Of a stretch of DNA of 64,000 nucleotides, positions 5,038-63,306 are shown piece after piece. Position 1 is the first letter of the stretch. Every line of letters starts with the position of its first letter. The translations under genes were made by a program, and so were the position numbers. Below the pieces are notes generated by a model. The model was given only the letters and a program-made list of their open reading frames with translations. It ran no database searches and had not been told where the DNA came from. This DNA comes from a virus. Lineage: Duplodnaviria > Heunggongvirae > Uroviricota > Caudoviricetes. The stretch lies in the IMG/VR virus record IMGVR_UViG_2939521961_000011. The stretch is one strand, 5' to 3'.

Positions 5038-5121
5038 TCAACCCCAGCGGCAAATCGAATAAACCACCAGCGCTACCGCCATTGCAACTCCTGCCGTTAC
5101 GAATGCCTCAGGCCAGGTCAT
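5038..5121 (-). CDS. Conserved 27-aa hydrophobic small protein (MTWPEAFVTAGVAMAVALVVYSICRWG)
   Basis: ATG overlaps the upstream stop (ATGA); GAGGA RBS; near-identical copy at 50221..50304 differing mainly by synonymous changes. Confidence 0.5.
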   Translation of the reverse strand: MTWPEAFVTAGVAMAVALVVYSICRWG

Positions 5122-5303
5122 CGTAAACTATCCTCAGCGCCAATCAGTCCGTTTCGCTTCAGGCAGTCCATCGCTTTATACGGTAATTTGGCTGACAGGC
5201 GAAAATCACCCTGCAGCATCAGGCTTATTCCCTTATCCCGGGCTTTCGCTCTGACCGCTGCCTCGCTACGACCAATCAGACTGCCGATACTTTCGACAGT
5301 CAT
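5118..5303 (-). CDS. Small HTH-like phage protein
   Basis: HTH-like segment IGSLIGRSEAAVRAKARDKGIS; longer paralog at 51734..52015; start chosen to avoid overlap with the upstream gene. Confidence 0.4.
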   Translation of the reverse strand: MTVESIGSLIGRSEAAVRAKARDKGISLMLQGDFRLSAKLPYKAMDCLKRNGLIGAEDSLR

Positions 5304-5362
5304 CGTTCCCGCGCACTGCCGGAGTATCAGAATTTCAGCCCGGCACCACGTCTTCCACCCAC

Positions 5363-6124
5363 TCACCGCTGCTGTTCTCTGGTGGCGGTAATATCCCGGA
5401 GAATATCCCGGCACTTGTTCAGCTCCCGCAGCGCGGCGCAGACTCGCTCCCACTTCTGAACCTGACCTTTTGCCCGGCGCAGCTCGCGGTTAGCCACATG
5501 CAGCGATGGTAAAATCAGCCCATCCGGATGCTTTCTGGTGAACGACGGCTGTGACTGCACTGTGACCGCCACACTTTCCGTTTTTATTTCTTCCTGTGTT
5601 TCCGCTTCCCGGACTGGTAACGCAACACATGCTGGCTGAGGAAAGGCTTTACCATCGGTTTCCGCTACGGATGCAGCTTCCGGCTCTGCCGGTAAATCAG
5701 CGCCCGGTATGCAGTAACGAAATTTACCGTTCTGATTTACGCGTGCCAGGCGCCCCGTTGCTGTTACGACCGCCAACGTGGAAGCAACCTTGCGAATGCT
5801 AACACCGAACTTATCCGCCAGTTCCTCACACGTTTTAGCCCCATCCTGACAGATAAACTCAATCATCATGTCCGCGGTAACTTTTTGTTCGACCTCCCCG
5901 GTCAGCACATCCGGTACTTCAGACTGTGCTGGCTGTTCTTCGGTTACCCCGGATTCACCTTCACCAGCCAGAAACCAGGTGTGACCCGTTTTATCAACAA
6001 CGCCATTTTTTTTGAGTTCCCACAGTTCGTTGAGAACTTCTTCACGGCTGATATCAAGCCGCGCCGCCAGTTCAACAGAATTGGCTTTACCCATCGTTTT
6101 CAGTGCATGCAATACGGTTTCCAT
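5363..6124 (-). CDS. DUF1627-like phage protein with N-terminal winged-helix
   Basis: 253 aa, acidic linker, conserved C-terminus; paralog at 52048..52809; lies directly downstream of the DnaC-like gene. Confidence 0.65.
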
Positions 6125-6153
6125 TAAAACTTCCTCCGGATAAAAATTACTTC

Positions 6154-6894
6154 TCAGTTCCTGTGCTGGCTGACGTTCGGACGCCAGCTCTCCCAGTTAA
6201 ACGTCACCCAGCGACCACCGTTCATGGACATGCGGTCCATCACCCGCTCGCCGAGAAGTGTATTCATCGCTGCATGGTTAAGATTTGTCAGCATCCCCAC
6301 ACTGAGTAACGATGCCGTTCTGCGGTCAACAATCTGATTCAGCGTGACCTGCTCATTACGCGTATCCCGTTGCATGCCAATTTCATCCAGTACCAGCAGG
6401 TCAACGCCACACAATCCCTGCAAAAATTTTTCGCCCGAGTTTTTGTTGTCGTAGCTGCCATGTAACGCCAGCATCACATCCGCCACTGTTATCACAATCA
6501 CACTGCGACCTTTCGCCAGAAGGTGGTTGCCAATAGCCGCCGCCAGGTGGTTTTTTCCTGTGCCAGGCCTGCCACTGAAAACAAAATTCGTACAGCCGCC
6601 TTCCAGCTCTGCCGCAATGGATTTCGCCTGACTCAGGGCATGGCGCTGACCATCGTTCTGCACCCGGTAGTTACCGAACGTACACTTCCGGTGAAGCGGC
6701 TGGATACCGGAGCGGTTAATGATTTTTTCAACCCGCGTCTGATGATTCAGACGATTAACCTCCTCGCTTCGCTTACGCCCTTCAGCAAGCTGCCATTCCC
6801 GCCACTCCGTCACCGTACGGTACGGAGGGATTGCATCCTGCGGCACAAATCTGCTGACTCTTGCCAGAACACCACCTGACGTAATGTTTTTCAT
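6154..6894 (-). CDS. Replication protein, DnaC-like helicase loader (IstB-type AAA+ ATPase)
   Basis: Walker [12 protein letters not shown] and Walker B LLVLDEIG; follows the O-like gene. Confidence 0.85.
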
Positions 6895-6900
6895 GATGCG

Positions 6901-7866
6901 CTACCCCCTGAAACCCGGCGGAATTTCGGTATCCGGTTCAGAAATATGATTCACGCAACGCTGCGCGGGACCACGCCACAGTCGAATAACCAGTTCATCC
7001 CATTTCTCACGGAGTTTTTCCGGGCTCTTGATGTTTTTTATCCAGAACGGATCCCGTTGTGCCCGGCTGAACATTTCGCAAATTTGTCTGTGACTTCTTC
7101 CATCCAGCATCCGCATTGTGCGCACGTCATTGGCCCACGCCGTCCAGTTGGGCTCTTTCGGTCGCGTGATCTCACCATCGTCACTGGCAGCCTGTTCGTA
7201 CAGGTTTACAACCCGCCCCCAGATCCACTGCGCACATGTCAAATCCTCCCGGGTTCCCCACTGGCGTTTTTTCACGCTGAACACAACTGCATCAGGATGG
7301 CGGGTTAAAAACGCCTGTTCAGCCGTCAACTCGTCCGGTTGCGAAGCGTCCGGACAAGAGAGTTTTTTATTCTCTGTTGTATTCTCTGTTGTATTCTCTG
7401 TAGGATCATCGGGCCATTTTGACCTGATGACATTGGGCCGTTTTGAACCAATGGAACGTTTCATTTTGACCTCTTCCATCGTGTCATTTTGACCTGATGG
7501 AGTGGCGCATTTTGACCCGATGGATTCGTTCACTTTGCCATCATCTAAAAGCGCGCTATCGTAGTTAATTGTGTAAAAATTAGTCATATCACGCTTCGAT
7601 TTATTGAGCTTTTCGCTACGCAAAAGCCCCAGCGCTTTCAGACTTGCAAACGCACGCTTTAACGTTGACTCTGACCAGAACGGAAACTGTTCCAGCCATT
7701 GTTCCGTTGTGTTGTAAATCCAGCGAACGCCATCACATTCCATGCCGGAACTGGTATCCCTCAACCAGTAATGCAGTTGCTGCAACACAATGGCTTCGTT
7801 TAAACCAATCTTCATCGCCAGCTGTGTGTTTATAACCAGCGGGCGTTCAGCAAAAAGAAGGCTCAT
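6901..7866 (-). CDS. Replication initiator O-like protein
   Basis: C-terminal domain shared with the second copy; iterons lie inside the ORF; TENTTENTTEN coding repeat. ORF-track start is GTG at 7908; first ATG at 7866. Confidence 0.8.
   Translation of the reverse strand: MSLLFAERPLVINTQLAMKIGLNEAIVLQQLHYWLRDTSSGMECDGVRWIYNTTEQWLEQFPFWSESTLKRAFASLKALGLLRSEKLNKSKRDMTNFYTINYDSALLDDGKVNESIGSKCATPSGQNDTMEEVKMKRSIGSKRPNVIRSKWPDDPTENTTENTTENKKLSCPDASQPDELTAEQAFLTRHPDAVVFSVKKRQWGTREDLTCAQWIWGRVVNLYEQAASDDGEITRPKEPNWTAWANDVRTMRMLDGRSHRQICEMFSRAQRDPFWIKNIKSPEKLREKWDELVIRLWRGPAQRCVNHISEPDTEIPPGFRG
7411..7525. repeat. Replication-origin iterons inside the O-like gene
   Basis: Five copies of CATTTTGACC(T/C)GATGG-like repeats spaced 23-24 bp, followed by an AT-rich stretch; lambda ori has the same layout inside O. 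Confidence 0.6.
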
Positions 7867-8368
7867 AATTCCATCCGGCTTTTTGTTGGTACTGGTGACG
7901 ATAGGCACGCTTGAAAGCGATTGCTTTTTCTATAAGCTCGTCTGTCTCACGTTCCACAACAGCTGGATCTGCAAAAAGCAGCCCGGACTCCACCACATCG
8001 CCATATTCTTTGTTTAACCCGGCAATCATGTACGTAATGCTTTTTCCGTCAGTAATTTCGCGGTACAACCTGAAATCACTAATCCGGATAGCCTCCATAA
8101 TTGCCGGAATCAGCGCCGTGAATTTTTCACGCTTATCCCTGGTGTCGATAGCCTTCCAGCGTTCGAATATCTTCACCCGGTTAACGCCCAGTGCCCGTTG
8201 ATCAACCTCGCCATCATTAAACGTGATGCGTTGAACATCGATGTTCGGGCGTTCTTTCAGAGCCCAGAATGCTTCCGTGATTAATATCGTCGCCTGTTCC
8301 TGTGTCATTCCTGGTCGGCACACCCAGGCATCCAGAGCCTCACAAACCTGTTCAGGGGTGATTTTCAT
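7847..8368 (-). CDS. YdaT-family regulatory protein (cII-position gene)
   Basis: 173 aa sharing the MKI...W...K.F.RW..DT.D...PAI...YREI pattern with the 141-aa copy at 54568..54993; sits between cro-like and O-like genes. Confidence 0.55.
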   Translation of the reverse strand: MKITPEQVCEALDAWVCRPGMTQEQATILITEAFWALKERPNIDVQRITFNDGEVDQRALGVNRVKIFERWKAIDTRDKREKFTALIPAIMEAIRISDFRLYREITDGKSITYMIAGLNKEYGDVVESGLLFADPAVVERETDELIEKAIAFKRAYRHQYQQKAGWNYEPSFC

Positions 8369-51517: not shown

Positions 51518-51737
51518 TGTTAACCTCCTGCAACGCTACACGATACGCCTTCTTTATCCACGCCTTACTGCCATATAATTTCGTCTTCATAATAAACACA
51601 CCTGCACGACTCGCCGATATCCCCGGACAGGTTAACAGCACAGCATCCACCACACGGTTATGCTTCCGAAACTCCATTACAGTACTGCTGATAACCACCT
51701 GCCCCACCGGGCCGTAATCCTGATACAGGATTTTCAC
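51510..51737 (-). CDS. Hypothetical phage protein
   Basis: 75-aa ORF overlapping its neighbours by 8 and 4 nt. Confidence 0.4.
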   Translation of the reverse strand: MKILYQDYGPVGQVVISSTVMEFRKHNRVVDAVLLTCPGISASRAGVFIMKTKLYGSKAWIKKAYRVALQEVNSE

Positions 51738-52015
51738 GCAGACACCCTCCTGTCGAAATAAACGTAGTTATTCACTATGCGCAGCGGCATGCCTAATTTT
51801 CTGGCAATTTCCCTTCTTTGCATGCCTCTCTGATGCAGTTGCCGCGCCAGCTCAATATCACGCTGAGAATATTTTGCCGACGGGTGAAAATCACCACGTA
51901 ACATCATGCTGATGCCCAGCTCCCGTGCCTTCGTTCTCACTGCCGCTTCAGTTCGTCCGATAAGTGCGCCAACGCTTTTTACCTTCATCGTTCCCGCACA
52001 CTGCCGGAGTATCAT
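51734..52015 (-). CDS. Small HTH-like phage protein (two HTH-like segments)
   Basis: Paralog of 5118..5303 with a C-terminal extension; start chosen at an internal ATG. Confidence 0.4.
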   Translation of the reverse strand: MILRQCAGTMKVKSVGALIGRTEAAVRTKARELGISMMLRGDFHPSAKYSQRDIELARQLHQRGMQRREIARKLGMPLRIVNNYVYFDRRVSA

Positions 52016-52047
52016 GATTTCCGCCCGGCACCACGTCTTCCACCCAC

Positions 52048-52809
52048 TCACCGCTGCTGTTCTCTGGTGGCGGTAATATCCCGGAGAATATCCCGGCACT
52101 TGTTCAGCTCCCGCAGCGCGGCGCAGACTCGCTCCCACTTCTGAACCTGACCTTTTGCCCGGCGCAGCTCGCGGTTAGCCACATGCAGCGATGGTAAAAT
52201 CAGACCATCCGGATGCTTTCTGGTGAACGACGGCTGTGACTGCACTGTGACCGCCACACTTTCCGTTTTTATTTCTTCCTGTGTTGCGGCTTCCCGGACT
52301 GGTAACGCAGCACCTGCTGGCTGAGGAAAGGCCTTACCATCATTTTTCGTTACCGGCGCGGCTTTCGGATCTGCTGGTAAATTCCCCCCCGACATGCAGT
52401 AACGAAATTTACCGTTCTGATTAACGCGTGCCAGCCGCCCCGTTGCGGTTACCACCGCCAGCGTGGAAGCAACCTTGCGAGTACTGACGCCGAACTTACC
52501 CGCCAGTTCCTCACACGTTTTAGCACCATCCTGACCGATAAACTCAACCATCATGTCTGCGGTAACTTTTGGAGCGACCTCTTCGGTTACCACATCCGGC
52601 GCTTCAGGTTGTAGTGCCTGCCCTTCGGTTACCCCGGCTTCACCTTCGACAGCCAGAAACCAGGTGTGACCCGTTTTATCAACAACGCCATTTTTTTTGA
52701 GTTCCCACAGTTCGTTAAGAACTTCTTCACGGCTGATATCAAGCCGCGCCGCCAGTTCAACAGAATTGGCTTTTCCCATCGCTTTCAGTGCATGCAATAC
52801 AGTTTCCAT
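52048..52809 (-). CDS. DUF1627-like phage protein
   Basis: 253 aa, about 90 percent identical to 5363..6124. Confidence 0.65.
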   Translation of the reverse strand: METVLHALKAMGKANSVELAARLDISREEVLNELWELKKNGVVDKTGHTWFLAVEGEAGVTEGQALQPEAPDVVTEEVAPKVTADMMVEFIGQDGAKTCEELAGKFGVSTRKVASTLAVVTATGRLARVNQNGKFRYCMSGGNLPADPKAAPVTKNDGKAFPQPAGAALPVREAATQEEIKTESVAVTVQSQPSFTRKHPDGLILPSLHVANRELRRAKGQVQKWERVCAALRELNKCRDILRDITATREQQR

Positions 52810-52834
52810 CGAAAATTTACCTCGTCAAAAATTC

Positions 52835-53566
52835 TCACATACCCTGACGTCCAACGTTTGACCGCCAGCTCTCCCAGTTAAAATTCACCCAACGACCACC
52901 ATTCATGGTCATACGGTCCATCACCCGATCTCCGAGGAGTGTGCTCATCGCTGCGTGATTCAGGTTCGTCAGCATTCCGACACTACGCATCGAAGCCGTT
53001 CTGCGGTCGACTATCTGGTTCAGCGTGACCTGCTCGTTGCGCGTATCCCGCTGCATGCCAATTTCATCAAGGACCAGAAGGTCAACTCCACAAAGCTCCT
53101 GTAAAAATTTTTCCCCGGACTGGCCGTTGTCGTAGCCGTCATGCAACACGCTCATGACATCGGACACGGTGACGATAATCACGCTTCTCCCCTTCGCCAT
53201 CAGCCGATTGCCAATCGCTGCTGCCAGGTGATTTTTACCGGTACCAGGTTTACCGCTGAACACGAAGTTTGTACATCCGGTCATCAATTCATCGGCAATG
53301 GATTTCGCCTGGCTCAGAGCATGGCGCTGACCGTCGTTCTGCACCCGGTAGTTCCCGAATGAGCACTTCCTGTGAAGCGGCTGGATGCCCGCACGGTTCA
53401 GGATTTTTTCAACCCGCACCTGATGATTCAGGCGGTTAATCTCCTCGCTGCGTTTTCGTCCTTCAGCAAGTTGCCATTCCCGCCACTCCTCCACCGTCCG
53501 GTACGGTGGAACCGCCCCCCTGTGGTGCAAGTCTGCGAATACGTTCAAGAACCCCAACTGCCGCAA
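52835..53566 (-). CDS. Replication protein, DnaC-like helicase loader
   Basis: Walker [12 protein letters not shown] and Walker B LLVLDEIG; paralog of 6154..6894. Confidence 0.85.
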   Translation of the reverse strand: MRQLGFLNVFADLHHRGAVPPYRTVEEWREWQLAEGRKRSEEINRLNHQVRVEKILNRAGIQPLHRKCSFGNYRVQNDGQRHALSQAKSIADELMTGCTNFVFSGKPGTGKNHLAAAIGNRLMAKGRSVIIVTVSDVMSVLHDGYDNGQSGEKFLQELCGVDLLVLDEIGMQRDTRNEQVTLNQIVDRRTASMRSVGMLTNLNHAAMSTLLGDRVMDRMTMNGGRWVNFNWESWRSNVGRQGM

Positions 53567-53582
53567 TGTTTTTCATGACACG

Positions 53583-54545
53583 TCACCCCCTGAATCCCGG
53601 CGGTATTTCAGTGTCCGGTTCAGAAATGTGATTCACGCAACGCTGCGCGGGCGAACGCCCCAGGCGGATAACCAGTTCATCCCATTTTTCCCGGAGTTTT
53701 GCCGGACTCATGATGTTTTTTACCCAGAACGAATCCCGCTGGAGACGCCCAAACATTTCACAAATTTGTCTGTGAGTTCTGCCATCCAGCATCCGCATTG
53801 TCCGCACGTCATTGGCCCATGCAGTCCAGTTGGGTTCTTTCGGTCTCGTGATCTCGCCATCATCGCTGGCCGCCTGCTCGTAAAGACTCACGATTCGTCC
53901 CCAGATCCACTGTGCGCACACCAAATCTTCCTGACTTCCCCACTGGCGTTTTTTCGCACTGAACACAACCGCGTCAGGGTGTCGGGTTAAAAAATCCTGT
54001 TCAGCCGTCTGCGGGTCCGGTTGCGAAGCGTCCGGACAAGAAGATCTTTTATCTGACGGATCAGGTTTTAATACTGACGGATCGGGGTCAATCATCGCCC
54101 CCCTAATCGGCAGTTTGTTATCAACAGTTGATCCATCAAAATTTGACGGGTCAACCGTTGAGGGGGCAATATTTGACGGGTCAACTGTTAACGGGTCATT
54201 TTTTGCCGGGCTAATTTTTCTTTTCGGTTTATATGACTCACGCGCCGCCGCCGCAGCTGCTTCGAGTTTTTCCACATTAAGCCGATAGATATTGCTTACA
54301 TTACGCCCACCGACCTTACGCTCTTCCTTCGTCAGCCAGCCCTCTTTCGCCAGTTCTGCAATAGCCGATTTCACTGTGGATTCACTTCTTGCACCGATCT
54401 GACGCCGGATAGTTTCAATGGCAGGCCATGACACGCCCTCGTCATTGCTGTAGTCTGCAAGACGGGCCATAACCGCCACCCTGGATAAGATCATGCCGGT
54501 GAAGGCGCACCCTTCCCAGACAAGACCATGAAGCTTGCTGCTCAT
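53583..54545 (-). CDS. Replication initiator O-like protein
   Basis: C-terminal about 150 aa nearly identical to 6901..7866; different winged-helix N-terminal domain; iterons inside the ORF. First ATG used. Confidence 0.8.
   Translation of the reverse strand: MSSKLHGLVWEGCAFTGMILSRVAVMARLADYSNDEGVSWPAIETIRRQIGARSESTVKSAIAELAKEGWLTKEERKVGGRNVSNIYRLNVEKLEAAAAAARESYKPKRKISPAKNDPLTVDPSNIAPSTVDPSNFDGSTVDNKLPIRGAMIDPDPSVLKPDPSDKRSSCPDASQPDPQTAEQDFLTRHPDAVVFSAKKRQWGSQEDLVCAQWIWGRIVSLYEQAASDDGEITRPKEPNWTAWANDVRTMRMLDGRTHRQICEMFGRLQRDSFWVKNIMSPAKLREKWDELVIRLGRSPAQRCVNHISEPDTEIPPGFRG
54040..54230. repeat. Replication-origin iterons (second type) inside the O-like gene
   Basis: Repeated TTTGACGGGTCAAC / CTGACGGATC units followed by an AT-rich stretch. 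Confidence 0.5.
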
Positions 54546-54567
54546 AAAACCCCCGAACACCGTGCTT

Positions 54568-57951: not shown

Positions 57952-60603
57952 ATGAGCACAAAACCACTCTTCCTTTTACGGAAAGCGAAAAAATCATCCG
58001 GTGAACCTGACGTCGTCCTGTGGGCAAGCGACGATTTTGAATCAACCTGTGCCACTCTGGACTACCTGATCGTTAAGTCAGGTAAAAAACTGAGCAACTA
58101 TTTTAAAGCTGTTGCCACAAATTTTCCTGTCGTTAATGACCTTCCCCCTGAAGGTGAGATCGATTTTACCTGGAGTGAACGCTATCAACTCAGCAAAGAC
58201 TCCATGACCTGGGAACTAAAACCGGGAGCAGCGCCAGACGACGTTCACCATCAGGAGGATGCACCGGAAACCGAAGAACCGACGGGAGGCCAGGAAGAAA
58301 ACGCGCAGGCAGACGCCCACGAGGATTGCCAGGATTGCGAAGTCTCTGTAGCCACTTTGCGGTTCACACAGCGTCTTCTGCACATTTTTACGTATGCAGC
58401 CGGGGATCGAAAATACCTGCATCATGCCACCCGTGAACAACGCAAACACATTACTGCTCTTGAGATGGATCAGGAAAACAGCTATGTCCAGAATCTGCTG
58501 TTGGCCATACGCAGCATGGCAGAACCGACAACTCTGGATAATGCCGCCCTGCTCCGCCTGACTGATGCAATTAAGGCAGTGTTCTCTATCACGAAAAAAC
58601 ATCAGCCCTATGAATTTAAGAATTTCATTTCAGCCTGGCTGGATACCGAACACATTGATCGCGGTCTTCTGACAAAAGAATGGCGAAAAGGGAATCGTGT
58701 TTCACGCATCACTCGCACGGCTTCCGGTGCTAATGCTGGCGGCGGGAACCTCACCGATCGCGGCGAAGGTTTCGTCCACGATCTGACATCACTGGCGCGC
58801 GATGTAGCCACTGGCGTACTGGCCCGTTCAATGGACGTGGACATCTATAACCTTCATCCGGCACACGCTAAACGCATTGAGGAAATTATCGCTGAAAATA
58901 AACCACCCTTTTCTGTTTTCCGCGACAAATTCATCACCATGCCTGGCGGGCTGGATTATTCCCGCGCCATCGTGGTTGCGTCCGTGAAAGAAGCACCAAT
59001 TGGGATCGAGGTCATCCCCGCACACGTCACTGAATATCTGAACAAAGTACTGACTGAAACCGATCATGCCAACCCTGATCCGGAAATCGTGGATATTGCC
59101 TGCGGTCGCTCCTCGGCCCCGATGCCGCAACGAGTAACAGAAGAAGGAAAACAGGACGATGAAGAAAAACCACAACCATCTGGCGCAATGGCAGATGAAC
59201 GGGCAACGGCTGAAACAGTGGAACCGAATGCAACTGAACATCATCAGAACACGCAGCCGCTGGATGCTCAGTCACAGGTAAATTCTGTTGATGCGAAATA
59301 TCAGGAACTGCGGGCAGAACTCCATGAAGCCCGGAAAAACATTCCATCAAAAAATCCTGTCGATGCCGATAAATTGCTTGCTGCATCACGTGGTGAATTT
59401 GTTGACGGAATTAGCGACCCGAACGATCCGAAATGGGTTAAGGGGATCCAGACTCGCGATTCTGTGTACCAGAACCAGCCAGAAACGGAAAAAATCAGCC
59501 CGGATGCGAAACAACCTGAGCCAGTAGTGCAACAGGAACCGGAAATAGTCTGCAATGCCTGCGGTCAGACTGGCGGGGATAACTGCCCTGACTGTGGTGC
59601 GGTGATGGGCGACGCAACATACCAGGAAACATTCGGTGAAGAGAATCAGGTTGAAGCTAAGGAAAAAGATCCGGAGGAAATGGAAGGCGCTGAACATCCG
59701 CACAATGAGAATGCTGGCAGCGATCCGCATCGCGATTGCAGTGATGAAACTGGCGAAGTCGCAGATCCCGTAATCGTAGAAGACATAGAGCCAGGTATTT
59801 ATTACGGAATTTCGAATGAGAATTACCACGCGGGTCCCGGCGTCAGTAAGTCTCAGCTCGATGACATTGCTGATACTCCGGCACTGTATTTGTGGCGTAA
59901 AAATGCCCCCGTGGACACTACAAAGACAAAAACGCTCGATTTAGGAACCGCTTTCCACTGCCGGGTACTTGAACCGGAAGAATTCAGTAACCGCTTTATC
60001 GTAGCACCTGAATTTAACCGCCGTACAAACGCCGGAAAAGAAGAAGAGAAAGCGTTTCTGATGGAATGCGCAAGCACAGGAAAAACGGTTATCACTGCGG
60101 AAGAAGGCCGGAAAATTGAACTCATGTATCAACGCGTTATGGCTTTGCCGCTGGGGCAATGGCTTGTTGAAAGCGCCGGACACGCTGAATCATCAATTTA
60201 CTGGGAAGATCCGGAAACAGGAATTTTGTGTCGGTGCCGTCCGGACAAAATTATTCCTGAATTTCACTGGATCATGGACGTGAAAACCACAGCGGATATT
60301 CAACGATTCAAAACGGCTTATTACGACTACCGCTATCACGTTCAGGATGCATTCTACAGTGACGGTTATGAAGCACAGTTTGGCGTGCTGCCAACTTTCG
60401 TTTTTCTGGTTGCCAGCACAACTGTTGAATGCGGACGTTACCCGGTTGAGATTTTCATGATGGGCGAAGAAGCAAAACTGGCAGGCCAGCAGGAATATCA
60501 CCGCAATCTGAGGACCCTGGCTGACTGCCTGAATACCGATGAATGGCCAGCTATTAAAACGTTATCACTGCCCCGCTGGGCTAAGGAGTATGCAAATGAC
60601 TAA
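57952..60603 (+). CDS. recE: Exodeoxyribonuclease VIII RecE
   Basis: 883 aa; C-terminal PD-(D/E)XK RecE-fold nuclease region ([21 protein letters not shown]...); followed by overlapping recT. Confidence 0.9.
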
Positions 60604-61405
60604 GCAACCACCTATCGCAAAAGCCGATCTGCAAAAAACCCAGGGAAACCGTGCACCAGCAGCAGTAAAAAATAACGACGTGATCAGCTTTATTAATCAG
60701 CCATCAATGAAAGAGCAACTGGCAGCAGCTCTCCCACGCCATATGACGGCTGAACGAATGATACGTATCGCCACCACAGAAATTCGTAAGGTTCCGGCGC
60801 TAGGAAACTGTGACACCATGAGTTTTGTCAGTGCGATCGTTCAGTGTTCACAGCTCGGCCTTGAGCCAGGTAGCGCCCTCGGCCACGCATATTTACTGCC
60901 TTTTGGTAATAAAAACGAAAAGAGCGGTAAAAAGAACGTTCAGCTAATCATTGGTTATCGCGGCATGATTGATCTGGCTCGCCGTTCTGGTCAAATCGCC
61001 AGCCTGTCAGCCCGTGTTGTCCGTGAAGGTGACGAGTTTAGTTTTGAATTTGGCCTTGATGAAAAGTTAATACACCGCCCGGGAGAAAACGAAGATGCAC
61101 CAGTGACCCACGTCTATGCTGTCGCAAGACTGAAAGACGGAGGGACTCAGTTTGAAGTTATGACGCGCAAACAGATTGAACTGGTGCGCAGCCAGAGTAA
61201 GGCTGGTAATAACGGGCCATGGGTAACTCACTGGGAAGAAATGGCAAAAAAAACGGCTATTCGTCGCCTGTTTAAATACCTGCCTGTCTCAATTGAAATC
61301 CAGCGTGCAGTATCAATGGATGAAAAGGAACCACTGACAATCGATCCGGCAGACTCCTCTGTATTAACCGGGGAATACAGTGTAATCGATAATTCAGAAG
61401 AATAA
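60596..61405 (+). CDS. recT: Single-strand annealing recombinase RecT
   Basis: 269 aa [35 protein letters not shown]..., matching RecT as I recall it; start overlaps the recE stop. Confidence 0.95.
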
Positions 61406-61937: not shown

Positions 61938-62225
61938 ATGGCAATGAATCTTGTGACACTCAAAACGTGGGGAAAACTCAGATATCCGGATAACCCACCA
62001 TCAATATCAACGCTGAGACGATGGGCAAGGAATGGAAACATTTATCCTGCACCTGAACTACACGGGAGGAGTTACAGGGTGGTTCCGGAAGCTTTCTATA
62101 TCAACCCAAATAAGGTTGATACCGATATAACACACCATCAGCCTAATGGGCGACAAGGGAGAGACAGTCCGTTACTGGAGAAGTTAAAACATGCAGCGGA
62201 AAAAATACGATCCCAATTTACCTAA
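61938..62225 (+). CDS. xis: Excisionase (lambda Xis-like)
   Basis: 95 aa with the W.K..YPDNPPSISTLRRWARNGNIYPAP..HGRSY pattern resembling lambda Xis; overlaps the int start. Confidence 0.6.
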   Translation: MAMNLVTLKTWGKLRYPDNPPSISTLRRWARNGNIYPAPELHGRSYRVVPEAFYINPNKVDTDITHHQPNGRQGRDSPLLEKLKHAAEKIRSQFT

Positions 62226-63306
62226 AAACTTAACATATCGAAGGAGGGACAAAGCATATTACTGGCGCAACCCTCTGACGAAAGAAGAATTTACACTAGG
62301 TAAAATTTCAAGAAGAGATGCAGTAGCGCAGGCAATTGAAGCAAATCATTATATATACAAAAACTACTCTCCTGCTGCCTTAATTGAAAAACTAAAAGGG
62401 TTCGACTCATTTACTATGGCAGACTGGATTGAACGTTACAAAACGATTCTTATAAGGAGAAAAGTGTCCAGAAATACTTATAAAATTCGGGTAAATCAAC
62501 TGGAGACAATAAAAGAAAAATTAGGAGGGGTTTTACTGACAGAAATAACCACTCGCCATATTGCCGAGTTTCTTGATTTGTGGATTGAAGGAGGGAAAAA
62601 CACGATGGCAGGATCAATGCGTTCTGTGTTATCTGATATGTTCCGCGAGGCCATTGTTGAAGGACGTATATCTCAAAATCCAGTAACGCCAACAAGAGCA
62701 CCGAAAATAGTAGTTACAAGAGAACGGCTGAAACTAAAGACATACAACTGCATCAGGGAGGCAGCAGATCAACTTCCGACATGGTTCCCATTAGCTATGG
62801 ACTTAGCCCTTGTAACAGGACAACGTCGCGAAGACATAACAAATATGCGGTTCAGTGAGATTTATGATGATCGTCTCCACATCAGGCAAATTAAGACAGG
62901 AATGATGATTGCTATCCCCCTGTCACTCAGCCTTCCTGTCGCTGGTTTACGACTTGGTACAGTAGTTGAACAGTGCCGCATGGTAAGTAGGGGGGATTAT
63001 CTAATCAGTGCCGGGATTAGAAAAAACAGCCCTGACGGCAGCATTCACCCGGACGGCCTGACAAAGAAATTTGTCGCAGCCAGAAAATTAACAGGTATCC
63101 AGTTCAGTGAAAACCCACCAACTTTTCACGAGATCAGAAGCCTGGCTGGACGATTGTACAAAGAAACATGTGGGGAAGAATTTGCTCAACGTCTACTTGG
63201 CCACACATCGGAGAAGACAACAAAAATGTATCTTGATGAGAGAGAAAAAACGTACTACTGCTCTGATTTTAACGTAAATGGATTGTTAAATGTGTTTTGG
63301 TTGTGA
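62191..63306 (+). CDS. int: Lambda-family tyrosine integrase
   Basis: 371 aa; N-terminus [27 protein letters not shown] and C-terminus [15 protein letters not shown]...[13 protein letters not shown] parallel lambda Int. Confidence 0.9.

Follow-up and report, generated by a model that had tools for sequence, protein, structure and literature searches.

Lambda-O-like initiator genes of two tandem prophages, with putative internal origins and probably exchangeable specificity cassettes

The virus record IMGVR_UViG_2939521961_000011 (Caudoviricetes) carries two genes for O-like replication proteins, here called O_A and O_B after the prophages A and B in which they lie. The two proteins end alike and begin differently, and each gene contains its own set of repeats, raising the question of whether origin specificity has been exchanged as a module while the remainder of the initiator was retained. 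The window analysed is the whole stretch of 64,000 nucleotides, to which all coordinates refer. By analogy with phage lambda, O_A and O_B are quite probably initiators of the lambda O family, each with an origin inside its own gene and with specificity cassettes that can be exchanged. Coordinates of the features are collected in Table 1.

Both open reading frames (ORFs) given in a preliminary description of this DNA were recovered on the minus strand. The O_A ORF extends to a GTG at 7908 (6901..7908, 335 residues), and a RefSeq copy 100% identical to this stretch is annotated from the ATG at 7866, resulting in a protein of 321 residues. Similarly, the O_B ORF extends to a GTG at 54560 (53583..54560). 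O_A is named 'hypothetical protein' and O_B 'helix-turn-helix domain-containing protein' in RefSeq. The profile phrog_391, 'replication initiation O-like', was matched by the whole of O_A (E = 8.5e-91) and of O_B (E = 2.4e-115). A Pfam search with O_A gave zero matches, and O_B matched HTH_36 (PF13730) with 27.8 bits against a gathering cut-off of 25. Homologues of O_A numbered 4188, and the 120 best listed were all 'hypothetical protein' or nameless. Counting copies covering at least 80% of the gene as near-complete, a complete or near-complete A-type initiator gene was present in 1745 of 5426 complete Escherichia coli genomes and a B-type gene in 1515. E. coli O26:H11 strain 11368 holds 100% identical copies of both genes, 363 kb apart. 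Positions 8001-33000 of the window were matched at 99% identity or more by none of the complete E. coli genomes in the collection, the best match covering 90% at 95.8%; the DNA is attributed to an E. coli similar to enterohaemorrhagic and enteropathogenic strains, or to a close relative.

The shared C-terminal domain that had been described for the two proteins was confirmed: in a global alignment, their last 155 residues were 87% identical (135/155), and the corresponding coding DNA was 79-87% identical. Following a tblastn search against phage genomes, residues 191-294 of O_A aligned with the O proteins of lambda and 933W at 44% identity (E = 3e-17). When the C-terminal core was searched against Pfam and PDB sequences, only the DnaT-like tail treated below was returned, the link to lambda O coming from tblastn only. 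At the junction between head and C-terminal half, protein identity steps from about 20-30% to 87%, and DNA homology starts abruptly at 7370 (A) and 54052 (B), within a few nucleotides downstream of the repeats. Movement of a cassette by recombination at this conserved junction would explain the abrupt step.

The N-terminal heads had been described as unrelated, a claim that was not upheld. The first 58 residues of O_A (numbering of the 335-residue ORF) could not be aligned with O_B, and residues 59-118 of O_A aligned by BLASTP with residues 41-98 of O_B, with 33% identity in the winged-helix core in a global alignment. In the linker encoded by the repeats, identity was 16%. Each head alone matched phrog_391, 428, 270 and 678 over identical profile positions, with E-values of 1e-15 (A) and 3e-34 (B) for phrog_391. 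Small alignments, one for each head type, were compared with hhalign, giving a probability of 90% and E = 1.5e-6, with 34% identity over 58 columns. The heads are thus homologous by hhalign and PHROG profiles, a result that the preliminary description had taken to count against its proposal of different specificities. Two diverged domains of one fold may nevertheless differ in specificity, so that proposal survives the homology of the heads.

An AlphaFold2 model of O_A predicted a winged-helix topology (H-H-E-E-H-H-E-E) for residues 9-108, with a predicted local distance difference test score (pLDDT) of 65-86. Residues 109-172, exactly the segment that the iterons and A-rich repeat encode, were predicted to be disordered (pLDDT ~26), followed by a helical domain at residues 173-297 (pLDDT 66-82 in the C-terminal core) and a disordered tail at residues 298-321 (pLDDT 32-37). 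The top Foldseek matches of the O_A head in the PDB were all winged-helix domains, including plasmid Rep and DnaD N-terminal domains, which lends weak support to a winged-helix head.

Both repeat sets lie where they had been placed before, at 7407-7526 in O_A and at 54111-54210 plus 54053-54086 in O_B. The cores of the five A-type units begin in reading frames 1, 0, 2, 1 and 1. Since identical cores fall in all three frames and give no peptide repeat, the A repeats appear to be selected at the DNA level. Compared with the divergent locus L208, the 17-nucleotide A cores were 90.6% identical, the spacers 72% and the head-coding DNA 70%. Allowing three mismatches or fewer, the A motif occurred four times in the window, three of these inside O_A, where 0.67 were expected; none of 100 shuffled sequences reached four. 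The B-type units encode NDPLT VDPSN IAPST VDPSN FDGST VDNKL and form palindromes; the array includes a 33-nucleotide inverted repeat, and unit number differs among relatives (L026, L028). The sole two exact copies of the B 15-mer in the window lie inside O_B, 30 bp apart. Taken together, the frame-scattered A cores, the disordered linker, the conservation of the cores and the B palindromes indicate that selection acts on the repeats as DNA. A further array of this type turned up in the replication region of neither prophage.

Next to each array lies an A/T-rich stretch. The 12-bp A-rich repeat of O_A occupies the same place as the A/T-rich unwinding region of lambda, and the GATC-containing stretch of O_B, which is conserved in the relatives L006 and SfIV, is a candidate unwinding element or a candidate Dam/SeqA-sensitive element. 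As separate observations, the 12-bp repeat behaves as a small variable-number tandem repeat beside the iterons, with 3-5 copies among otherwise identical A-type genes. Four GATC sites fall within the 90 bp at 54043-54130 beside the B iterons, the window average being 0.27 per 100 nucleotides; one 13-mer there resembles, by eye, the oriC element GATCTnTTnTTTT, and the stretch GATCCGTCAG…ATAAAAGATCT is kept in L006 and SfIV. The pentamer TCAAA is common to the repeats of lambda (TCCCTCAAAACGAGGGA; L210, nucleotides 1416-1499), the A type (GGTCAAAATG) and the B type (GACCCGTCAAAT); it may be a shared half-site core of homologous winged-helix heads, or a coincidence.

The association of heads with repeats was followed through 87 loci encoding the conserved C-terminal domain, 86 of which had an intact head: 19 of A type, 66 of B type and one of a third type. 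With the window copies added, 20 A and 67 B heads were available; one scan of genome contigs for related loci yielded just seven. All 20 loci with an A head carried three or four A cores and no B cores, and 66 of the 67 with a B head carried two to four B cores and no A cores. The 67th, the diverged Morganella locus L006, has neither motif; its head is 71% identical to that of O_B, and it has 15-bp units of its own, TTGAGGGGTCAAATA, at the same position. Repeats at this position were likewise found with the third head type, in Enterobacter locus L005 (GGTGCAGGAnATTCACCAG), and in SfIV (CTGACsCrTCAAAA), where identity to O_B over the whole protein is 56%. The more a head has diverged, the more its repeats differ as well.

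The C-terminal domain, by contrast, is inherited independently of head and repeat type. Some A heads, including those of L002 and L025, are joined to a B-like C-terminal domain that is 92% identical to that of B, versus 85-88%, and in L208 an A head and five A iterons are joined to an unrelated C-terminal domain. Three loci, L020-L022, are B-head/A-tail chimeras with a single crossover, at which a run of 33 B-specific sites gives way to about 270 that are A-specific; the A-like tract runs on through the DnaC-like gene to about 5658, and the crossover interval corresponds to 53877-53883 in copy B. Like the anatomy and the homologies, the co-inheritance of heads with iterons and these recombinant genomes were observed. 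The two latter support head and iterons as one exchangeable specificity cassette set on a conserved C-terminal half, and with it the modular exchange of origin specificity put forward in the preliminary description, the matching of heads with repeats, L208 and the chimeras all agreeing with it.

Within each O gene, the order is winged-helix head, five to six iterons in a disordered linker, A/T-rich stretch, helical core and DnaT-like tail. If the genes work as in lambda, dimers of the N-terminal domain would bind their own iterons to form an O-some, the A/T-rich DNA beside them would open, and the C-terminal part would bring in the DnaB helicase via a DnaC-type loader, either a phage paralogue where present or otherwise host DnaC. 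The cassette would have been moved repeatedly between backgrounds by homologous recombination, both at the conserved junction and within the C-terminal coding region.

Other explanations were weighed against the same observations. The repeats could merely encode a low-complexity linker peptide (VDPSN/IAPST, TENT), with no function as DNA and with the origin elsewhere. The B 15-bp and TENT 12-bp units are indeed in frame and give peptide repeats, the linker is predicted to be disordered and the TENT copy number varies freely; the 23-bp period of the A array, however, sets identical cores in three frames and produces no peptide repeat, the A cores are more conserved than their spacers and than the folded head, the B units are palindromic, and position and spacing of the arrays fit oriλ, leaving this explanation improbable. 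Very slightly more improbable still is that a single ancestral gene diverged rapidly by vertical descent, with diversifying selection setting the heads apart and with no exchange of modules. Homology of the heads means that divergence from a common ancestor did occur at some point, but such divergence fits poorly with an identity step so abrupt that DNA homology begins within a few nucleotides, with the clean single crossovers of L020-L022, with an A cassette on the unrelated C-terminal domain of L208, and with C-terminal similarity that does not follow head type.

Iterons serve both origin and control roles in plasmids, and the repeats might accordingly bind the initiator mainly for autoregulation, for replication control by titration or handcuffing, or for exclusion of related phages, rather than for strand opening. 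Cloned oriλ fragments inhibit rep-lambda phages (PMC3349717), and the GATC cluster of O_B suggests a control element. Against a mainly regulatory role stand the adjacent A/T-rich stretch, in an arrangement colinear with that of oriλ, whose iterons constitute the origin, and the fact that neither replication region showed another such array; we rate this role as about as improbable as vertical divergence of the heads.

Several points nevertheless weigh against a lambda-O-like initiator with a cassette of this kind. PF04492 (Phage_rep_O) was matched by neither O_A nor O_B in the Pfam search. The structure model of O_A is of low confidence (its mean pLDDT is 59, and the underlying alignment was shallow, with 19 sequences), and all Foldseek matches of the head in the PDB were non-significant (E >= 0.03, the best at 0.03). 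The count of B 15-mers in the window was not above chance, with five observed and 2.2 expected, and their 15-bp period is in frame, so that selection on the peptide is possible in principle. Head and repeats lie less than 400 bp apart, and their co-inheritance could be simple linkage. Prophage B, whose loader gene is frameshifted (see below), may rely on host DnaC or on the prophage A paralogue, or may be replication-defective. Binding of the repeats by the heads and origin activity are putative, the evidence for them being indirect (co-variation of heads with repeats, conservation of the cores), and what is said here of the function of O_A and O_B, be it DNA binding, origin firing or loader recruitment, leans on the analogy with lambda.

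The DNA shared by the two loci also bears on rearrangement. The neighbouring genes had been called near-identical; they are homologous, but identity amounts to 84% for the tract as DNA and, at the protein level in global alignments, to 79% for the DnaC-like and 88.5% for the DUF1627 products. An identity of 97-99% is limited to 5336-5635, inside the DUF1627 gene, where the longest exact runs are also found (181, 81, 67 and 56 bp); a further exact run of 27 bp lies at 7333. The natural single-crossover chimeras L020-L022, which arose inside the shared tract, bear out the suggestion that it is a substrate for rearrangement, and they are what recombination between prophages of these two types should yield. 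Inversions, which had also been suggested, are not expected: the copies are direct repeats, so the product would be a 46.7-kb deletion leaving a hybrid prophage. Relaxed homologous recombination between temperate phages and defective prophages by Rad52-like phage recombinases has been described (PMC3945230).

Further colinear tracts in direct orientation, with 81-91% identity, were seen between the prophages (A/B): 1179-2247/47946-49014, 3716-4160/49783-50228, 9202-9385/56502-56685 and 12470-13147/59136-59774. They span the DUF968 and hok regions as well as early-left genes, and the longest exact run measures 172 bp. The prophage pair therefore shares several possible crossover sites.

In the preliminary description, the C-terminal domain of about 150 residues was taken as the helicase-loader interface. 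This does not sit well with a core that is lambda-O-like and a partner that is DnaC-type, and a short C-terminal tail offers a better fit. The O_A tail matches the C-terminus of DnaT (NF002770 positions 158-179; PDB 2ru8, 6aep and 9zbt), and the DnaT C-terminal motif ...VSEPD..IPPGFRG is present in O_A and O_B. The full-length DnaT model NF002770 gave 17 bits against a cut-off of 201, over the last 21-22 residues only. When IMG/VR was scanned for IPPGFRG directly before a stop codon, the tail turned up on at least five unrelated initiator bodies of enterobacterial phages: the lambda-O-core, 'RYLAATGK', DUF1376/YdaU and two others. The ending ...VNHISEPDTEIPPGFRG closes O_A, O_B and YdaU of the K-12 Rac prophage (L088), as well as the products of phage loci L090-L209.

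A strict link between tail and downstream DnaC-like gene was ruled out, because only 59 of 116 tail-bearing loci have such a gene; the link was accordingly weakened to a DnaC-type pathway, of phage or host. A lambda-P-like gene was found in none of the 116. Conversely, in L006 a protein with a head of the same family and the same core ends in a lambda-like tail (…LDFSNTDWIDG…), and a lambda-P-like gene follows. HannyBb (L211) and SfIV (L212) are viable, isolated phages with an initiator and iterons and without a loader gene after the initiator, which implies direct use of a host loader; the HannyBb initiator has the tail and that of SfIV a variant of it, and their initiator gene is followed by one for a 'Ren-like' protein of about 140 residues or by a PerC-family gene. 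Given the swap of tail and loader in L006, the loader-less phages and the DnaC-type partner, the short tail is more likely than the 150-residue domain to be the loader-specific element, and it would connect the initiator to the DnaC-type loading pathway, whether through host DnaC or a phage paralogue.

More generally, and with less than even confidence, it is proposed that the tail of 17-23 residues, ...(V/I)N.(V/I)S.PD..IPPGFRG, is a portable peptide joining an origin- or fork-bound protein to DnaC-type helicase loading. If so, these phages would recruit host DnaB-DnaC by mimicry of DnaT, the hand-over from DnaT to DnaB-DnaC would run through the tail, and the dnaT-dnaC operon would derive from such a prophage module. 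Locus L093 (IMGVR_UViG_2836629841_000004) encodes a DUF1376 head, a DnaT-like C-terminal domain and the tail, with a DnaC-like gene downstream. Judged by its sequence, it looks like what a phage ancestor of the dnaT-dnaC operon might have been and would support such a derivation; its segment …YWQCEGKVKHHIQWEQTFASSLQ… presumably corresponds to the DnaT single-stranded-DNA-binding domain, by comparison with the E. coli DnaT sequence. How DnaT recruits DnaB-DnaC was described as still unknown in a 2026 preprimosome structure paper (PMC13377028). For DnaT residues 154-179, the only reported role is a modest effect on cooperativity of single-stranded-DNA binding (PMC4132743), and no partner of the tail is given in the structural papers on DnaT. 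Lambda O cannot do without its last five residues (PMC6022878).

The genes downstream of the initiators encode DnaC paralogues and not DnaC itself: NF009043 was matched with 474 (A) and 468 (B) bits against a cut-off of 389, and the DnaC equivalog NF005931 with 303 and 299 bits, below its cut-off of 357. In prophage B, the DnaC-like gene is frameshifted by +1 within a G6 run near 53515-53520. The frame of its conserved ATG (53576) stops after 37 codons, and the long ORF resumes from a TTG in a different frame; in O26:H11 strain 11368, the gene adjoining the 100% identical copy of O_B is annotated 'frameshifted'. With its loader gene interrupted in this way, prophage B is perhaps defective or dependent on another loader. 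Gene order is the same at both loci: Cro-like, YdaT-like, initiator, DnaC-like AAA+ and DUF1627. A gene for a small DNA-binding protein, downstream of DUF1627, lies at 5118-5453 (-) in A and 51734-52138 (-) in B. The A copy is truncated, its RefSeq homologue being 'partial' with the C-terminus missing, and the shared tract ends there (5186).

The two prophages are tandem lambdoid prophages in the same orientation. Prophage A ends with an integrase gene at 14089-15384, and the tail genes of prophage B come after an NleC-like gene. The latter, at the junction between the prophages, is a 328-residue ORF at 16175-17161 (-) with a HEIIH zinc-protease motif, and its counterpart in CFSAN027343 is annotated as type III effector NleC. 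The tandem arrangement was sought in another strain, and in CFSAN027343 only the A part was matched. Prophage B runs from the replication module to recE, recT and an integrase gene at 62191-63306 (+). By position, length and sequence, ORFs of 883 and 288 residues at 57952-61405 (+) were taken as RecE-like and RecT-like; RecT belongs to the Rad52-like phage recombinases. With kilR and a YdaT-like gene, prophage B appears as a Rac-family prophage with an initiator unlike that of K-12 Rac.

Table 1. Coordinates of the initiator genes, their parts and neighbouring features in the window.
Feature	Coordinates	Strand	Remarks
O_A	6901..7866	-	Putative lambda-O-family replication initiator, 321 aa; RefSeq WP_000054520.1, start ATG 7866
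O_A, A-type N-terminal winged-helix domain	7543..7866	-	Putative iteron-binding head, aa 1 to ~108
O_A, A-type iteron array	7407..7526	.	Five 23-bp units, coding-strand core CCATCrGGTCAAAATG; one unit forms a dyad
O_A, A-rich 12-bp tandem repeat	7365..7406	.	ACAGAGAATACA x3; encodes TENTTENTTEN; AT 63-73%
O_A, C-terminal core coding region	6973..7368	-	Homologous to the lambda O C-terminal domain
O_A, DnaT-like tail	6904..6972	-	GPAQRCVNHISEPDTEIPPGFRG; predicted disordered
O_B	53583..54545	-	Putative lambda-O-family replication initiator, 320 aa; likely ATG 54545; WP_001444941.1
O_B, B-type iteron array	54111..54210	.	Six in-frame 15-bp units, core TTGAcCCGTCAA, palindrome TTGAC-CC-GTCAA
O_B, AT-rich stretch	54040..54090	.	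Two CTGACGGATC repeats (54053-54086) and three GATC sites
O_B, DnaT-like tail	53586..53654	-	Differs only at the first residue: SPAQRC... (B), GPAQRC... (A)
DnaC-like gene, prophage A	6154..6894	-	AAA+ helicase-loader paralogue, intact; NF009043; IstB_IS21
DUF1627 gene, prophage A	5363..6124	-	PF07789, E = 1.6e-82
DnaC-like gene, prophage B	52835..53576	-	Frameshifted; probable pseudogene or N-terminally altered product
DUF1627 gene, prophage B	52048..52809	-	PF07789, E = 2e-88
Homologous tract, copy A	5186..7370	.	84% DNA identity over 2188 nt, direct orientation
Homologous tract, copy B	51871..54052	.	Partner of copy A
Crossover interval of L020-L022	7195..7201	.	In copy A

The value of these findings lies mainly in annotation and in the illustration of module swapping among phages, which in itself is textbook knowledge. 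Recognizing the A-type 'hypothetical protein' as a probable lambda-O-family initiator would place the origins of many prophages of enterohaemorrhagic and enteropathogenic E. coli, Citrobacter and Salmonella, while the tandem prophages, their diverged direct repeats and the natural chimeras document the formation of hybrid prophages in pathogenic E. coli. The DnaT-like tail is the most novel and the wider lead, providing a hypothesis for how DnaT and the loader-less phages engage DnaB-DnaC.

Among known systems, the Rac prophage of E. coli K-12 has the same gene order as both loci of the window, ydaS-ydaT-ydaU-ydaV-ydaW (oriJ). YdaV shares 75-81% identity with the DnaC-like proteins of the window, and YdaW about 60% with the DUF1627 proteins. 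YdaU, too, ends in the ...PD..IPPGFRG tail, and inside ydaU GTTCAAAC repeats precede an AT/GATC-rich stretch; prophage B in addition shares recE, recT and kilR with Rac. The body of YdaU, in contrast, is DUF1376, and BLASTP aligned only its last 19 residues with O_A and O_B. Literature searches on oriJ/Rac and DUF1376 turned up no account of either the origin sequence or the tail.

E. coli DnaT is similar in its last 23 residues (13/23 identical; G..QR.VN.VSEPD..IPPGFRG), and its gene likewise lies directly upstream of a dnaC-type gene. Neither the N-terminal domain nor the three-helix single-stranded-DNA-binding domain of DnaT shows similarity to O_A or O_B, and DnaT works with PriA and PriB at abandoned forks rather than at an origin (PMC13377028). 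DopC, which forms a pair with DopE (Brézellec et al. 2017, PMC5509034), combines an HTH_36 O-like N-terminus with the DnaT C-terminal motif, but is a domesticated chromosomal gene with a lambda-P-like partner and without the lambda O C-terminal domain or iterons (PMC5509034). The 'Eru' types published for Stx phage replication (PMC8044961, PMC8951638) were considered and set aside, Eru1-3 being different proteins. Some Eru types have HTH_36 and YdaT-like genes; as iterons and DnaC are not mentioned in that work, the O_A/O_B module could not be assigned to a type (PMC8951638).

Closer relatives are found among phages. The O protein of Escherichia phage HannyBb is 88.5% identical to O_A and its gene has four A iterons; SfIV gp41, more distant from O_B as given above, shares the C-terminal core and ends in the tail variant IPAGFRG, and its gene contains 15-bp iterons of its own. 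In HannyBb and the Shigella phages SfII and SfIV, O-like or 'primosomal' proteins are annotated, with no loader gene after the initiator.

With lambda itself, the comparison is closest along the gene. In oriλ, four iterons at nucleotides 350-433 of O, with spacings of 20, 24 and 23 bp, are followed by an A/T-rich stretch and the C-terminal domain. Colinear with this, O_A has five iterons at about nucleotides 341-460 with a 23-bp period, then the A-rich repeat and a C-terminal core homologous to that of lambda O (44%), and O_B has six 15-bp units followed by the AT/GATC-rich stretch. The iteron architecture is thus that of lambda, with four to six dyad-containing units about 20-24 bp apart in a linker-coding segment. 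The lambda O protein is known to combine an N-terminal domain for DNA binding, a flexible linker and a C-terminal region that binds P (PMC6022878). That origin specificity resides in the N-terminal half of O and the iterons, with the C-terminal half shared, is a lambdoid principle known since the 1970s. Furth, Blattner, Hobom and colleagues (1978-81) reportedly used O-hybrids of lambda, phi80, 82 and P22 to assign origin specificity to the N-terminal half, the C-terminal half being shared. Unlike lambda O, the proteins studied here have heads without a Phage_rep_O match (HTH_36 in B, none in A) and a DnaT-like end in place of ...TNTDWIYGVDL, and the downstream gene is a DnaC paralogue or is absent, versus P in lambda. 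O_A and O_B are therefore like lambda O in C-terminal core and origin architecture, and differ from it in head family and loader partner.

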